A stretch of 64,000 nt of DNA from Candidatus Bathyarchaeota archaeon (GCA_963720565.1 CAVRFW010000005.1:32001-96000), one strand, 5' to 3'; shown: positions 18,001-24,000, counted from the first letter of the stretch. Made by a program: the numbers.

Positions 18001-21000
18001 GTCTCTCATTTATTATTCCAAGGATCAGGCAGTTCCGTTGCGTGGGGCAGATGTCTCGAACGCATTAATCGAGTTGCTCGCCGTCACCCAGTGGGGTAAA
18101 TTAGATTTTCTGATAATTGACATGCCACCAGGCATTGGGGACGCAGTGCTGGATCTCTTGAGGCTGGTTAAACGCGTAGAATTCCTAATCGTCACAACGC
18201 CTTCGCTGCCTAGCTTTTGAAACTGTGAAGAAGCAGGCGACTTTACTGAGGGAGTTGAAGTTTCCAATAATCGGCGTTCTTGAAAACATGAAAATGAACA
18301 ATTCAGACAGCATCCAACTGGAAACTGGAAAACTCGGTTTGAATTTCCTCGCAGAAATCCCTTACGACCCAAAAGTTGAAGAAGCAATTGGAAACAAGAA
18401 CAAGCTTCTTGAAACCATGATTGCAGAGAAAATCAGAGAAATACTTCAAGTCAAAGCTCTATAGCGCGCATTTTTTGACTTACGAATCCAAACTGACTAA
18501 TGTTACTTATCGTAGATTCATAAGTTGCCCTATTATTTTGAATTCATAAGCGTCTTAAGCACGTTTGGTTCTACAGCTATCTCGGTGGAAAATTGGGTCT
18601 GCGTCGCCGAGCCTTGACTATTCTATTTCTTCCCATCGTAGTTCTCGTTTTCATGGTTGGTTGGATCTTTTATTACATGGGAAAACAACAGGATAGAGGC
18701 ATCGAAGCACAGCGAAAAAGCAGTGTACAGCAAGGCACAGGCATCAACGAAGAAGACTATGTTGAAGTTGGGTTAATAGAAGACCTCATGGAGAAAACAG
18801 TCCAAAACTGAGAATCATAGTCAAATAGCAGCAGAAAACATCAAAAGCTAATTTAGAAACAACCATTTGCCATAGAAGCATTAGTGTTGATACCTTGTGA
18901 CAAAGGGTTAACTATCACGAAAACTCTTAAATGAGACCGAGAATTACTCAATCAAGAATTCGCGTATAGCGATCAACGAGATGAAGTTGAATGGTTACCT
19001 CAATCGATAACAAGCTTGAAATTCTGAGTTACGATGAAGCAGAAAAGGTTTTCAACGTTAAGTCCCCCGCTGGGAACACTGTGAAAGTGCAAGATACTTT
19101 CGCCGAGATGTTTCCCTTGTGGGCTGGAAGAATTCTAATTACAGCGGAAAACGAAAGATGGGCGGAAATTGCTGCAAATGTGACTACGGGTTTTGCCACA
19201 AGCGTCATTATGGCGCCAGCGGAGGCGGCAATTGAAAGGTTTGTGCCGGCTTCTGAAACGCCTGATAATCGTCCGGGAGCACTTGTGCAAATCTATAATC
19301 GCGATCGTTTTGAATTGAAGCATCAACTTATGGAACGCATTGGGCAATGCATTATGACTTGCCCAACGACTACGGCATTCAATGGTTTGACAGGCAGAAG
19401 AGTGCTTAGAGTCGGCAGTAGTTTGCGTTATTTTGGCGATGGATTCCAGAAGAAAGCTTTGGTTAATGGGAGAAAATGCTGGAAAATTCCTGTCATGGAA
19501 GGTAACTTTCTGGTTGAAGACGGTTTTGGAGCCCAAGAAGCTGTAGCCGGCGGCAACTTCATGATATTTGCTGAGAACCAGCAGGCAGGCCTCAGAGCTG
19601 GAGAGGCAGCGGCAGACGCTATACGAAAGTACGCGCCAGACGTTATCATGCCGTTCCCGGGTGGAGTGTGCAGAGCAGGCAGCAAAGCCGGATCGTTGAA
19701 GTATAAGATGAAGGCTTCCACGAATCATCCGTACTGTCCTACATTGAGAACGCTTGTGCCTGATTCGGTGGTTCCCGAAAACGTTGAAAGCGTCTATGAG
19801 ATCGTTATGAACGGTTTGAGCTTGGACGCCGTTAAGAACGCTATGAAACAGGGTGTGACCGCAGCCGCAGGCTTTCCGGGCGTTGTGAAGATTTCATCCG
19901 GTAACTACGGTGGAAAACTCGGGCCTTTCAAGGCGTTCCTGAAAGAGGCGATTGGAGCACAGTAACTGCTTTTTTGAAGTAGCATCTTTTGTCTTAACCT
20001 ACACAGCCTAAGTTATGATTTAAGGCAAATTCACGGTTAATACAATTGAGCACCGCGAAAGAGGCGTCCCTTGAGTTTTTCAGACTTGCGTGCGCTTGCC
20101 GGCTATTACTTGTTCAATGTTGGCTTTTTCGGAGTCTGCTATTAGGAGTCTTTTTTGTCTTGATGTTGAGCCTGAGATTATTTCTACTTTGGCGTGGAAG
20201 ATTCTTGAGAGTTCTTTTATGATTTCCTTGTTTACTTTTCCCTCTACTGGTTCTTCGGTTGAATAGATAGTTATTTCGTCGTTATCGGCTATAATATTGA
20301 ATTTGTGAGAGTTTGGTTTTACAAATACTTCGATTAGGACACCATGTTTCGTTTGTGTGATTTTCATGCTGTGATGCACTCGGCGCTGGTTCTGCCTCCG
20401 CTTTGGAGGGCCCAACTGAACTTCTTTCGGAGCGTTGCAGGGTAGAACTTTTCCAGGTTGAAGTCGACTTTTTTAGCCCATTTGACGTAGGCTTTTGGGT
20501 CAATGTAAGATTTGAGGGAAGTACCCAGATTGTATTCTTTCGTGAGTTTGGTCAGCTCTAAGTCGAGTTTGGCTTTTTCTATTCTAGTAGTCAGGGATTC
20601 GGTTTTCTTGCCTTCGGCTTTTTTCTGTTTAAGCTGGGTTTCCATTTGTTTTAGTTTTTCGTCTTTCTTGGCGAGACGTTCATCGAAGGTAGGTGGGACT
20701 TTGCGTTTGTGGTTTGCAACTTCGGCTACCTTGAGGTTTGCCTTCTTCGCGGCGTAGTTCTTGAGGTATTCGGGGTCTTCTTTTCCTATTCCGCTCTTGT
20801 CGAGTTCTTCGTTTACGGTTTTTGTGCATCTCCAAGTGCGGAAAACCTTGGCGGTTAGTCCAGGCATCTTTTCTGAGAGGAACCGTGAGACTTTTTTGGA
20901 GTCTACTCCTTCGAAGAGGTATTCCTTGCTTGTTTTTGAGTATTCTCTTATGTTTCTGATGACTGAGGGCGGGGCCTTGACTGTTTTTATCCATCTGACT

Positions 21001-24000
21001 GAGTCTTTGCCTAAAAAGTCGAAGTGTAATGTGTCGTCCTCAATTTTAATGTGTTCAGATCTCAGCGTGATTGCGCCAACAGTGTCTGCTTCGTCAGGGT
21101 CTTTTTCGTCGCCGACCCTCATGTTTGGGTTGAGTATGAGCCAGCAGACAGTGGATACTTTCCGTTTTCCCTCGTCTTTGGAGTCGAGGTTTCTCATTAT
21201 GTGCTCTTCAATCTTTCCGATTTGCTTGCCCAAAGCTTCGGCTTTCTTGAATTTCTCTTTCTCGCGGTTTTGCTTTAGAAAAGCAGAGTCGCTGAACCAG
21301 ACGTACTTGATTTTTCCCGTTAGCTTGTCTTCCCATTTAGCCACGTACATCCTGTCTGGTTCCCACACAGTTTTCCAGCCTTCCAGTTTTGGTGCGTCAG
21401 GAGACAAGTTGAGAATTATGTCCTCTTTGCTTGGGCCTTCTTTCCATCTTCCACGCTGTGGGTGATCTCCGCGTCCGGCGAATAGGCATGAGGGTTCTGA
21501 GGTCCAGTTTGCTACTTCCAGTTTTTGCCCATCAACTTCAGCTACGCCGTATTTGGCTTTCATTTCTTCTCTGATTACTTTTCTTTCTGCTGCTTTCTGT
21601 TTCTTCTCGGCCTGCGACATTGTTTCTTTAGTTAGTCTTTCCTGTTTCACGAAATCCGTGATTTGGCTAAAGTCGATGTCTTTGTGGATAGGAGAGATCA
21701 GAGTTGCCGATGTCGGTTCCACTGTAACTGCGGATTTTCTTGTTGTATTCTGACGAGAAGTTTTCCATGAATTGTAGTGAAGGGTTTTCGCGTTTTAGTT
21801 GTTCTAGGAATTCGTGCATAAAGTTTTCCATGAATACTTTGTCAGGTGGAGACAGTTCAGACTGCCTTTTTCTGATCCATGCGATTGCCATCTGCTCGGT
21901 CTTGGAACTCAAGGGGATTGTTGTCCCACGAATTTTGACTTTGAATCCTTTGTGCTCGTATTGCGGAATGTATATGCCCTGGTGTTTTAGGCTTTTCATG
22001 ACCTGTTTCATATGGTGATCCTCTTGTAATGGGTTTGAAATGTGTTTGATTTCACTGTTTGAAACCTTTCAACTTAGCTTCTAAGCTTCTATGGCTTTTT
22101 TACTTTTTGTGCTTAGAATATAGTTTCTGTTTTCAGTCTTTCTCGCGCCTTAAAAATGTTCACTGCCAGTCTACTTGGAAAGGTATGAGGCAAGTCCAGA
22201 TTTTTTTGAGGCTCTATTGCGCTGTAGTTTAATGTAAAGTTGTTCGACGATTTTTCGTTCCACGTACCCTTTGTGGGGCCGGAAGCCGCCTGAAAAACCG
22301 CCTGGGATGTGCAGGAGCTCGTGAATCAGAGTTTTCTCTTTGTCCTCTTTGGACATTTTGTCGTATATTTCAGAGATAACCTCGATCGTGTAGGAAGGTG
22401 GTATGTTGAGGACACCCTGCCAGATTTTGCCTAAGCCGTGGATTCGCGCGATTGTTCTTCTGGCTTTTGAGCCTTTGGAGCGGACGCAGAAAACGAATTG
22501 CGGTACAACGTGGTACAACTCCAAGTCAGAAGCGATCTGGTCTACTTGTTGTTTGATTTCGGGGGCGTCATAATACTTAATCGGCATAGTTCTTATCTTC
22601 AGATTGGGTATAGGTCATTGGATCAATTCGAGTTAAAAAGGTAACGTGTGAAGCTAGTTTCCAATGCCCTAAGGGAAAAATCCCCCTGAGGGACCAAGCC
22701 TCGTAACCTTAGTGTAGATGGTGAAACTAGTGTACTTGGTTCCAGGTGTATAAGTTCCACCTGAGTAGAGACCGTCAATGATCGTGCCAGTGCAGCTTCC
22801 TCCAACATAGACATCATAAGTGGAGCCCAATGCGAGACTAGGAAGCGAAAAAACTATCGACTGATACTGTTTCGTAGGCTTTAAGGTGAAGATCCCAGTT
22901 CCGTCGCTGGCTTGGACATGGATTAGAGTGCCTGCTGGATATGGAGACCGGAAATTTAGCATAACCGAATATTGAGTCGACAGATTCCCAGGAGGCAAAG
23001 CCATACCTGAACTTCCCACCGCATACAGAAAGCCACCAGTGATGTTGAACGCAATGTGATCCAAAGCGCTATTCATGTTAGACGATGGACCGTCAACCAG
23101 CACATAGCCGCCAGTCATCACTACTGCGCCATTTGAGTCAATACCATCTCCCAACGCGTTAACCGCGAGATACCCGCCGTTGATATAGAGATAGTAGTTG
23201 CCTGTGTATGTGGAGAAGCCTATCCCTTGACCTGGACCCGGAAAACCGGAATCAACTCCCATGTTTATGCCGTCATCGCGCGAAACAACATGGATGACTC
23301 CGTTGTTGATTGTCACAACCGGAGCTTCAATGCCCTCGTAAGATCTTGGGATACTAATCTCTCCATTGTTTATTGTAATTGAGGAGTCAGCGTGAATTCC
23401 ATCGTCTCCCGTAGAAAGGACTAGAGAACCGCCATTGATAGCCACATTCCCATTCGAGTGAACGGCATCGTCAGCCGAGTCAATCACAAAAACACCTGCA
23501 TCAATCGTCACACCAACAGCCCCCTTAATGCCCTTCGCGGAAACAACTCCAACTGCCCCACTACTACCCCCTCCAGACACCAGATTGAAGCTTCCACTAG
23601 TGACTAAAACGTTCCCCGCGGCATCAACAGCGTCTCCGCCGGACCGGATACCTATCACACCGCCCCTAACAGATATGTAGCCCATCGTGGCATCCACCAT
23701 ATTGTCGGATTTCAAACCGTCACCACCAACATCCAAAACAAGATTTCCACCGTTAGCAACGAGAAAGTCTTTACCCCGAATGCCGTCGTCAACCGCACTA
23801 ATTGTGATATTGCCACTCTCAATGGTCAACCCGTCTTTGCTCGCGACACCATCATTAAAGTTACCCTCAACATTCAACGAGCCACTGCCCAAGATTACAA
23901 GATTAGATCTGCAGAAGATAGCCGCATTCGGCTCATCCACGCCAGGATTCGCGAAAATATAGGAAGTCCCATCTGACACAGAATTCTCAGTGCCCGCTTC

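Follow-up and report, generated by a model that had tools for sequence, protein, structure and literature searches.

A compact HExxH zincin encoded next to topoisomerase IB in Bathyarchaeia, a possible protease of DNA-bound proteins

In a 64,000-nucleotide stretch of DNA from a Candidatus Bathyarchaeota archaeon (the window), a small putative zinc metalloprotease is encoded directly upstream of a eukaryote-type topoisomerase IB (TopIB). As judged from its sequence and predicted model, the protein is probably a compact, active and free-standing zincin. Comparisons of predicted fold and sequence profile support the view that its closest relatives include the SprT/SPRTN and Wss1 families. The pairing with TopIB does not amount to many independent observations, the two genes are unlinked in other families, and the protease occurs independently of TopIB. 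A dedicated enzyme for the clearance of TopIB complexes is therefore unlikely. The reading towards which we lean, and which we hold loosely, is that of a general DNA-associated protease of the SprT/Wss1 kind, for which TopIB complexes would be one substrate among others.

Organization of the locus

The features of the locus are listed in Table 1. An earlier note on this DNA had described four open reading frames on the minus strand, and all four are found where it had placed them. It had also described the TopIB gene as split by a frameshift, which is borne out by one extra base and by the two reading frames, which jointly cover the TopIB Pfam domains. The C-terminal piece matches positions 82-213 of the Topoisom_I_N profile, Topoisom_I (202.9 bits) and Topo_C_assoc (64 bits). 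TopIB orthologues in the same genus are single open frames of 538-549 residues. The extra base is missing from the nearest orthologue (G367), and all three covering contigs of related strains, from two public runs (X1 and X2), leave out one base at 21696 or 21697. The frameshift is specific to this assembly. The start of DUF167 overlaps the stop of TopIB by 4 nt, and the DUF167 gene is the sole DUF167 match found in its own genome.

Table 1 Features of the protease-TopIB locus. Positions are counted from the first nucleotide of the window.
Feature	Position	Strand	Evidence
Candidate archaeal TATA box TTTTTAA, about 49 nt upstream of the protease start codon	22633..22639	-	Read from sequence
HExxH zinc metalloprotease (putative), 138 aa	22171..22587	-	ORF; PF18894, 71.9 bits
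Protease-TopIB spacer, 159 nt, holding a TTTTTAA box at 22150-22156	22012..22170	-	Sequence
TopIB N-terminal piece, 114 aa, with out-of-frame residues at its end after the frameshift	21667..22011	-	Topoisom_I_N profile 4-81
Single extra base splitting TopIB in this assembly	21696..21697	-	One-base gap against the G367 orthologue; 3/3 related-strain contigs
TopIB C-terminal piece, 452 aa: remaining DNA-binding fragment, catalytic core and C-terminal domain	20364..21722	-	Pfam
DUF167/YggU-family gene, 95 aa	20080..20367	-	Pfam, 58.7 bits; TIGR00251

The gap between the protease and TopIB genes, 159 nt here, ranges from 51 to 200 nt in other linked loci (median 144 nt, 61 loci). The TTTTTAA box within it lies 15-21 nt past the protease stop codon. 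The same box occurs in 43 of the 61 orthologous gaps, where its median distance is 26 nt from the protease stop that precedes it and 118 nt from the TopIB start that follows; it could act as a T-run terminator, as the TATA box of TopIB, or in both ways. Gaps of this length, with a box close to the protease stop, fit separate transcription units. Of the operon proposed in the earlier note, the TopIB-DUF167 part alone is shown, and a transcript common to protease and TopIB stays a proposal. Among the runs on record as RNA, none contains this stretch. Upstream of the protease, a TATA-like heptamer is found within 90 nt of the start codon in 45 of 80 related loci; by its sequence, the heptamer at 22633..22639 would be the promoter of the gene. 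The protease may be co-regulated with TopIB.

Sequence and predicted active site of the protease

The PF18894 profile (cut-off 23.7 bits) matches residues 4-106 of the protease, as well as all 58 aligned relatives. The archaeal branch of PF18894 is named "predicted metallopeptidase" by JGI. H89, E90 and H93 are invariant in all 58 sequences of the alignment, as are Y66 and E69, while conservation is 90% or higher at R48 and H105; the same set of residues had been reported before and is recovered here from an independent alignment. The nearly invariant H105 follows the HExxH motif (HELLH) by 12 residues. From this pattern, H89, H93 and H105 are the probable zinc ligands and E90 the probable catalytic base, and the protein would thereby bind zinc and cleave peptide bonds. 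The strong conservation of the family also holds, the best 120 homologues being 81-99% identical to the protease.

The archaeal branch is single-copy, basic and widespread in Thermoproteota. The isoelectric point of the protease is 9.65, and it exceeds 9 in 53 of the 58 family members. In one homologue, P0238, the HExxH motif is interrupted by a LAGLIDADG intein. Inteins occur preferentially in replication and repair proteins. The 138-residue protein has one basic helix at its end and lacks both a second Pfam domain and any cluster of Cys or His. Among the best 150 of 273 representatives and three longer forms, none has a zinc-binding or other recognisable DNA-binding subdomain or is fused to TopIB or a DNA-binding domain.

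Predicted fold and profile affinity

The AlphaFold2 model of the protease has a mean pLDDT of 97.3, in agreement with the value of 97 given earlier. Its C-terminal helix (residues 111-137) is basic. In VIA-align comparisons, the model matched the minigluzincins selecase (4qhf, Z 7.7), abylysin (Z 7.0) and jannalysin (Z 6.8) at 17-22% identity, SPRTN (6mdx, Z 7.5, 97 aligned residues, rmsd 3.1), Wss1 (Z 7.0 for 5xbn and 4.8 for 5ln5), AQ_1354 (Z 6.7) and YbeY (Z 6.0 and 4.9). Every fold match is below Z 8, a range also reached by unrelated best hits. The relatives named in the earlier note (selecase, SPRTN, Wss1, abylysin and jannalysin) were thereby recovered, at Z 4.8-7.7, together with its caveat: at Z 7 to 7.7, the fold does not single out DNA-protein-crosslink (DPC) proteases, as the minigluzincins are tied with SPRTN and Wss1. 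Foldseek returned no match at E ≤1e-3, the best E-value being 5.7e-3. In keeping with the earlier report that no PDB relative is found by sequence profile, the 58-member profile matched none of the 177,635 PDB sequences, minigluzincins included, with an E-value threshold of 10.

After PF18894, the commonest Pfam match is SprT-like (PF10263), found at E up to 1 in 21 of the 58 members; Peptidase_M56 is matched in 10. When the 138-residue protease and 19 other members were scanned as single proteins, only P0223 passed the SprT-like gathering score (27.6 against 25.6 bits, E 2.7e-6); the same protein touches the WLM profile (PF08325) at E 0.0069, the sole member of the 58 to do so. The protease itself reaches 14.2 bits against SprT-like (E 0.04), below the cut-off, with a match mainly over the HExxH helix (residues 64-94), and it has no WLM match at E up to 1.

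Comparison with known zincins

SPRTN binds DNA through a zinc-binding subdomain and a basic region that lie beside the protease core, and it removes trapped Top1. The protease described here shares with SprT-like proteins the HExxH motif and a third, downstream His, in what is predicted to be a small zincin core, and DNA-transaction proteins are its gene neighbours in two clades. It differs from them in being only 138 residues long, in lacking the zinc-binding subdomain and any ubiquitin- or p97-binding module, and in being missing from many TopIB-bearing genomes. The three-His site of SprT domains resembles the HExxH plus His pattern of the protease. According to a review, SPRTN's SprT domain was itself modelled on abylysin 4JIU (PMC6219452).

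With Wss1/WLM proteins, the protease may have the minimal zincin fold in common, the matches being below Z 8; it lacks SUMO- and Cdc48-binding motifs. The spacing of the third His in WLM also differs from that of the protease. Yeast Wss1 acts on Top1 cleavage complexes. The minigluzincins (selecase, proabylysin and projannalysin; 4qhf, 4jiu and 4jix) are, like the protease, archaeal, stand-alone soluble zincins, of about 100-110 residues, and they provide its best or tied fold matches. In the present family, the N-terminal sheet region is longer than theirs and the C-terminal helix is long and basic; the minigluzincins have no known link to DNA. We know of no established function for minigluzincins.

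Conservation and origin of the protease-TopIB pair

The earlier note's claim that the pair is conserved is confirmed in kind. In 61 of 80 Bathyarchaeia species loci, with protease identities as low as 56%, TopIB is the gene immediately downstream of the protease on the same strand, and the order protease-TopIB-DUF167 is conserved: DUF167 is present in 53 of the 61 linked loci and directly follows TopIB in 50. In the 61 linked loci, the protease has a median identity of 81.4% to its counterpart in the present locus, the TopIB core one of 73.9% and DUF167 one of 54.5%; in 53 of these loci the protease is more conserved than TopIB. Many TopIB-linked proteases have acquired a distinct tail at the C terminus, which ends in a K-K-Q-K-T-L-F-type motif and is missing from unlinked orthologues in the order.

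The pair arose once or a few times, inside a single family-level clade. In a quick tree, all 53 rows of the core clade are linked, and linkage, with five label changes, requires as few as one origin. Genome counts are therefore not independent, and the pairing cannot be read as many separate observations. Where other families of the order have both genes, these are unlinked, lying on different contigs or 40-740 kb apart. Protease orthologues at 50-65% identity occur unlinked to TopIB or in genomes in which TopIB has no match; for instance, none was found in the protease-bearing genera g11 (three of three genomes) and g19 (two of two), at 85-98% completeness.

Distribution and gene neighbours

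Among 151 genomes of the phylum, both genes are present in 28 and neither in 46; another 40 have the protease without TopIB, and 37 have TopIB without the protease. The 28 genomes with both compare with 29.3 expected by chance. All 19 genomes of one family contain TopIB and none the protease; in another family, all 13 genomes contain the protease and none TopIB. The two genes are adjacent in just 6 of the 28 co-carrying genomes, all in the family of the present genome; in families f21 and f23, 50-120 kb separate them. As the two genes show no joint pattern across the phylum, the protease has a role that does not need TopIB. Nor can it be a universal repair factor, since PF18894 is found in 68 of the 151 genomes and the other 83 are without it. 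A canonical SprT-like protein (E up to 1e-5) was found in none of the 151 genomes, 132 of which are of high quality; the control matched in seven genomes.

In f21, all 23 protease loci, representing eight genera, have an SSB-like OB-fold gene (PF21473) immediately upstream of the protease gene on the same strand. This SSB is the sole PF21473 match in the four f21 genomes checked. The non-independence of genome counts applies to this pair too. Sporadic neighbours of a similar nature are the Hjc resolvase, directly upstream of the protease in 2 of 30 f30 loci, NucS, which overlaps the 3' end of the protease gene in 1 of 22 f16 loci, and the primase large subunit, two genes away in one locus. Outside the two linked clades, most neighbourhoods have no connection to DNA and consist of transporters, metabolic enzymes and translation factors.

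Possible roles of the protease

Indirect clues, among them the TopIB and SSB neighbours, suggest that the protease may cut proteins stuck on DNA. A role on DNA is supported by the SSB-protease pair, the frequency of SprT-like among secondary Pfam matches, the active-site intein, the basic isoelectric point and the lack of canonical SprT-like proteins in the phylum sample. We propose that the archaeal PF18894 branch could be the counterpart, in this phylum, of the SprT/SPRTN and Wss1 DNA-associated proteases. The protease would sit on DNA via its basic surface and C-terminal helix and digest proteins covalently trapped there. In the Bathyarchaeia clade of the present locus, stalled TopIB-DNA cleavage complexes might be a main client, which would explain why the protease is kept directly upstream of TopIB-DUF167. 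The action on TopIB or on other crosslinked proteins, like the binding to DNA, is what we infer from these clues. The earlier proposal that the enzyme clears TopIB-DNA covalent complexes is thus retained in part. The conserved pair and the SprT/Wss1 affinity speak for it, and a general DPC protease with TopIB as one client is possible; a dedicated enzyme is unlikely in view of the unlinked genes and independent presence found elsewhere.

A bolder version is speculative and, in our judgement, rather unlikely. Archaeal PF18894 proteins would be the missing DPC protease of Thermoproteota, a stripped-down and distant relative of SprT/SPRTN that acts beside SSB on single-stranded DNA at stalled forks and has become coupled to TopIB in Bathyarchaeia. 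If this were true, the combination of a type IB topoisomerase with a zincin clearing its trapped complexes would predate eukaryotes, in archaea.

It is also somewhat unlikely, albeit deserving of weight, that the protein is a housekeeping minimal zincin with a non-DNA substrate, acting, for instance, in the turnover of small cytosolic proteins or peptides or in their maturation, and possibly self-inhibited like minigluzincins. Adjacency to TopIB or SSB would then be inherited gene order of no functional significance. The few origins of linkage, the TTTTTAA box between protease and TopIB and the variable neighbours in most lineages are consistent with this, as are the occurrence of the protease irrespective of TopIB, its single-copy, widespread presence in TopIB-less families and the fold matches to selecase, which ranks best, abylysin and jannalysin. 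However, both conserved pairs involve core DNA-transaction proteins and persist where protein identity has dropped to 56-60%, by which point gene order that is not under selection has usually decayed. The prominence of SprT-like among secondary Pfam matches, the basic character of the family and the intein-bearing active site also argue against a non-DNA substrate.

We consider it improbable that the protease is a TopIB-specific partner in this clade, which would process, mature or degrade free TopIB, or serve as a non-catalytic cofactor, with no part in general DNA-adduct repair. Such a partner would match the tight and persistent pairing, the tail of many TopIB-linked members and the higher conservation of the protease relative to TopIB, but not the unlinked or TopIB-less orthologues, the 37 phylum genomes in which TopIB occurs without the protease, or the lack of any fusion of the two proteins among the representatives surveyed. 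Least credible is a metal-dependent nucleic-acid hydrolase instead of a protease, similar to the YbeY endoribonucleases of like small zincin-like fold: the AQ_1354 and YbeY fold matches, the basic isoelectric point and the SSB and TopIB neighbours would fit a nucleic-acid enzyme, but the HExxH motif is classical, with its Glu invariant in all members, YbeY is not among the 25 Pfam families listed for the 58 members, and the YbeY matches are lower in identity (8-10%) and larger in rmsd than those of SPRTN and Wss1.

The preferred reading, a general DNA-associated protease, concerns the archaeal branch. The 138-residue protease has no PHROG match at E up to 0.01. The phage branch of PF18894 ("putative phage metallopeptidase", PHROG 513) belongs to the same Pfam family; its proteins differ in being about 206 residues long, in carrying CxxC pairs in some cases and in their genomic context.

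Genomic organization of the protease locus

An ORF and Pfam scan revealed four consecutive ORFs on the minus strand of the window, which encode the protease, a eukaryote-type topoisomerase IB (TopIB, split in two) and a DUF167 protein. This re-reading confirmed the genes, the positions and the protease-TopIB-DUF167 row described in the earlier note. PF18894, TopIB and DUF167 are each represented by a single gene in the genome. A formylmethanofuran-H4MPT formyltransferase gene, located on the opposite strand, flanks the row. The Cthe_2159-repeat neighbour of the protease is also kept at two other loci (L087 and L095), where a DUF3795 gene replaces TopIB downstream.

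Features of the protease-TopIB locus (coordinates along the window)
Feature	Position	Strand	Basis and remarks
Protease, 138 aa	22171-22587	minus	PF18894 'PhageMetallopep', 71.9 bits (cut-off 23.7)
TopIB, first ORF	21667-22011	minus	Topoisom_I_N profile positions 4-81
TopIB, second ORF	20364-21722	minus	Topoisom_I_N 82-213; Topoisom_I, 202.9 bits; Topo_C_assoc
DUF167 gene, 95 aa	20080-20367	minus	Pfam DUF167, 58.7 bits
Cthe_2159-repeat protein, 1119 aa	22669-26028	minus	Directly upstream of the protease; six carbohydrate-binding repeats, N-terminal hydrophobic segment
TTTTTAA box in spacer	22150-22156		Sequence
TTTTTAA heptamer, ~49 nt before protease start	22633-22639		Sequence

Relative to its nearest orthologue (genome G367, ~80% DNA identity), the TopIB gene of the window carries one extra base, placed after the …DIGNS codons and before those of IHKDIDF…. 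Four public metagenome runs were compared with the window through their Logan contigs; the frameshift is covered by three contigs (two in run X1, one in run X2), and in each of them one base is missing at 21696 or 21697. In the same genus, TopIB orthologues are uninterrupted, at 538-549 aa. The split is thus specific to the window's assembly, and reflects an assembly error or else a mutation that is very recent; for the lineage, TopIB should be regarded as intact.

Conservation of the protease-TopIB pair in Bathyarchaeia

Loci from 80 named Bathyarchaeia species were analysed together with flanking sequence of 6 kb. At 61 of these loci, the next gene after the protease on the same strand is TopIB, and a DUF167 gene is present at 53 of the 61, directly downstream of TopIB at 50. 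The pair is kept down to 56% protease identity, and the protease is the better conserved partner (median identity 81.4% vs 73.9% for the TopIB core). Neighbours are heterogeneous at the 19 unlinked loci.

A quick maximum-likelihood tree of 112 rows was obtained from 104 distinct Bathyarchaeia proteases and 8 outgroup sequences, leaving out identical sequences, fragments shorter than 100 aa and the window's duplicate locus. All linked proteases belong to a single clade (79 rows), linkage is complete in a core clade (53/53 rows), and five label changes are required on this tree. The many genomes featuring the pair thus reflect one or a few events, a single origin included, followed by long retention. 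The conserved pair reported earlier is real, but belongs to one clade.

Of 401 genomes sampled from the order, 268 gave a match for PF18894 and 299 for TopIB. TopIB is adjacent at only 3 of the 30 best-scoring PF18894 loci of this sample, which come mostly from families other than f1, the family of the window; all three belong to f1. In three other families of the order (f6, f7 and f11), the protease and TopIB are each frequent, but are found on separate contigs or far apart. For instance, PF18894 and TopIB map at 644 kb and 1381 kb in genome G098, and at 834 kb and 795 kb in genome G196. At locus L018 of G196 (f7), a DUF167 gene and the protease stand tail-to-tail without an intervening TopIB, which lies ~40 kb off on the same contig.

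Two irregular cases were observed. In genome G009, one of the contigs C73 and C33 carries the protease followed by TopIB split in two pieces, and the other carries a further TopIB, which is intact, with a fragment of the protease ~44 kb away; one copy of a duplicated locus may be decaying here. Loci L054 and L090 are typical Bathyarchaeia protease-TopIB loci found on contigs under Acidobacteriota MAG names (Sulfotelmatobacter and Acidiferrales), and these contigs are probably mis-binned.

Independent occurrence across the phylum

The PF18894 and TopIB genome lists of 151 phylum genomes were intersected by hand. PF18894 is present in 68 genomes (absent from 83) and TopIB in 65: 28 genomes carry both genes, compared with 29.3 expected by chance, 40 carry the protease alone, 37 TopIB alone and 46 neither. 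One family features TopIB in 19/19 genomes and the protease in 0/19; another features the protease in 13/13 and TopIB in 0/13. The genes adjoin in 6 of the 28 both-gene genomes, all six in f1. Within f1 itself, two genera, g11 (3/3 genomes) and g19 (2/2), retain the protease but gave no match for TopIB, their genomes being 85-98% complete.

Since there is no joint phyletic pattern, the job of the protease needs no TopIB, and TopIB needs no protease. Such independence is evidence against an enzyme dedicated to TopIB, and a TopIB-specific partner, which the conserved pair might suggest, is improbable. A general crosslink protease is not contradicted by the same data, because SPRTN and Wss1 are also general enzymes.

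Canonical SprT-like proteins were found in none of the 151 phylum genomes at E values up to 1e-5, with positive controls. In the genome of the window, the SprT-like profile gave only three sub-threshold matches, one of which is the protease itself. WLM gave one weak match among the 151 genomes, with a silent control. Tdp1 (PF06087) had no match in the genome of the window, but the control was likewise silent, so this result weighs neither way.

Sequence and predicted fold of the protease

A word-indexed search retrieved 2502 relatives of the protease, the best 120 of which are 81-99% identical. The family is compact, with no more than 273 representatives (50% clustering) in an exhaustive search. 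Sulfolobus acidocaldarius has a family member too. In an alignment of 58 diverse members, Y66, E69, H89, E90 and H93 are invariant, and conservation is 90% or higher at S37, A47, R48, L91, I94, P95, F98, G100 and H105; the pI exceeds 9 in 53 of the 58 members. The AlphaFold2 model obtained on this alignment (mean pLDDT 97.3) shows a mixed sheet, a helix carrying HExxH and, towards the C-terminus, another, long helix (111-137).

The longer forms comprise tandem duplications, one form with an intein, and fusions to Pyr_redox_2 and to a methyltransferase. Neither TopIB nor a DNA-binding domain turned up as a fusion partner among the best 150 of the 273 representatives and the longer forms. P0238, a 571-aa homologue found in the search of representatives, has a LAGLIDADG intein between HEL and CH (…IHEL / intein / CHIP…). 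In five tandem two-domain proteins (P0121, P0123, P0125, P0127 and P0153), one copy lacks HExxH (e.g., …QELLY… for …HELLH…), which hints that the single-domain protease may work as a dimer. For the protease of the window, we found no NCBIfam model, no PHROGs match and no usable match in the ESM Atlas.

The structural search with the protease model reproduced the scores reported earlier for selecase, SPRTN, Wss1 and minigluzincins, all below Z 8. The matches are selecase (Z 7.7), SPRTN (7.5), abylysin (7.0), Wss1 (7.0), jannalysin (6.8) and the YbeY-like AQ_1354 (6.7), with none at Z 8 or above. Foldseek gave nothing with the model at E values up to 1e-3, and a profile search of PDB sequences with the family gave no match. 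The predicted fold is that of a minimal zincin, and indicates nothing beyond. According to a passage of a review (PMC6219452), SPRTN's SprT domain had itself been modelled on abylysin; on that account, the top matches form one structural neighbourhood and are not rivals.

SprT-like is the most frequent Pfam match after PF18894 among the 58 members (21, vs 10 for Peptidase_M56). One member, P0223, passes the SprT-like cut-off with 27.6 bits (E 2.7e-6) and also touches WLM; the protease of the window reaches only E 0.04, in a match that spans residues 64-94. By its profile match, the window protein is classed as a PF18894 member. It was not filed under SprT-like or WLM because it falls below both cut-offs and, in contrast to SPRTN, has no zinc-binding DNA subdomain; nor was it filed under minigluzincins, because it has no sequence relationship to their solved members. 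It may nevertheless work like SPRTN or Wss1, and would then be a new, stripped-down form of a known kind of enzyme.

A second conserved pair and other neighbours

In f21, another family of the phylum, the protease gene lies directly downstream of a gene encoding an SSB-like OB-fold protein (PF21473), on the same strand. The pair is found by tblastn at 23/23 protease loci of this family (L150, L152-L155, L157, L159, L172, L173 and L180-L193), which come from 8 genera; the identity of the SSB falls as low as 61%. The SSB was confirmed by Pfam at three loci, and is the sole PF21473 match in each of four f21 genomes checked. The spacer is ~63-66 nt where measured. A myo-inositol-1-phosphate synthase gene lies upstream of the pair at annotated loci. 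The SSB and TopIB pairs are independent of each other as to lineage and partner, and either may go back to a single event.

Elsewhere, most neighbours of the protease are unrelated to DNA. DNA-type genes occur sporadically: Hjc at 2/30 loci of family f30, NucS at 1/22 loci of f16, as well as the primase large subunit and TatD. Hjc and NucS were rejected as conserved partners given these counts. No DNA gene is found near the seven loci of f24 (L194-L200), a family with the protease throughout and no TopIB in the phylum sample. Six of these seven loci share a conserved ORF of 68 to 82 aa that matches no known family, on the same strand as the protease and one or two genes downstream of it.

Most TopIB-linked proteases (L033-L104) end in …K-K-Q-K-T-L-F-(F/S/P), a tail that is absent from unlinked orthologues, which have plain basic tails in the order, and from most other families. 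We take this tail to resemble the PIP (sliding-clamp-binding) consensus. The protease of the window ends in …K-S-G-L-A-S-Y-L-S-K. Its co-folding with the PCNA of the same genome, both supplied as alignments, scored 0.18 against a mark of 0.32, which speaks neither for nor against binding.

Possible role of the protease

Repair of DNA-protein crosslinks (DPCs) by proteolysis is well described in eukaryotes, where it involves Wss1 and SPRTN. The earlier note proposed that the protease likewise clears TopIB-DNA covalent complexes. This proposal is narrowed on the TopIB side by the lack of phyletic coupling, and strengthened on the side of a DNA-associated protease by the SSB pair and the SprT-like affinity. 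We tentatively favour a general SprT/Wss1-like DNA-associated protease, of which TopIB complexes would be one client in the clade of the window. A DNA-associated role is favoured by two conserved pairs with core DNA-transaction genes, by the SprT-like affinity, by the lack of canonical SprT-like matches in the phylum sample, and by the intein in the active site together with the basic charge. It is disfavoured by the lack of a DNA-binding module and of an informative fusion, by a patchy distribution with mostly unrelated neighbours elsewhere, by weak structural discrimination and by possible separate promoters. A housekeeping zincin with a non-DNA substrate seems rather unlikely; a nucleic-acid hydrolase is very hard to credit.

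A full-text literature search (supplementary files aside) retrieved no paper naming an archaeal enzyme for proteolytic DPC repair, or giving PF18894 or COG4900 a function. The sole mention of COG4900 found is in a list of Crenarchaeota-specific proteins, in a passage of PMC1852104. TopIB is known in Thaumarchaeota and Bathyarchaeota from passages of PMC4824112, which make no mention of gene neighbours. The protease, a candidate of 138 aa with one domain, takes part in two conserved gene pairs related to DNA, in a phylum without detected canonical SprT-like proteins. If active on DNA-bound proteins, it would provide a minimal model for DNA-dependent proteolysis, explain how archaea with eukaryote-type TopIB handle trapped complexes, and bear on the archaeal inheritance of parts of the eukaryotic Top1 tool-kit. 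If not, the family would still belong to the best-conserved small enzymes of Thermoproteota that lack an explanation.

Spacer and transcription of the row

The operon proposed earlier holds for TopIB and DUF167, which almost certainly form one because the genes overlap by 4 nt. The protease and TopIB are separated by a spacer with a TTTTTAA box, and may or may not share a transcript. None of the runs recorded as RNA contains this stretch. The spacer measures 159 nt in the window and 51-200 nt (median 144) across linked loci. The box occurs in 43 of 61 spacers, at medians of 26 nt past the protease stop and 118 nt ahead of the TopIB start. Such a box can serve as an archaeal T-run terminator, as a TATA box, or both; separate promoters for the protease and TopIB are possible, judging from these motifs.

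In a large subclade (gaps of L038-L104, orthologous to 22012-22170), a conserved box, …AACTTTGCCG…, is found ~20-30 nt before the TopIB start. It precedes a GAGGT Shine-Dalgarno-like site, and a partly complementary GGCAAAG often lies ahead of it. RNAalifold predicted no consensus structure for the TopIB leader. A hairpin was dropped, as the hand-made pairing is mostly invariant, with some mismatches and weak covariation, and the element was kept as a conserved box. In place of the AACTTTGCCG box, the spacer of the window (22012-22170) carries two direct copies of TTTCAAAC.
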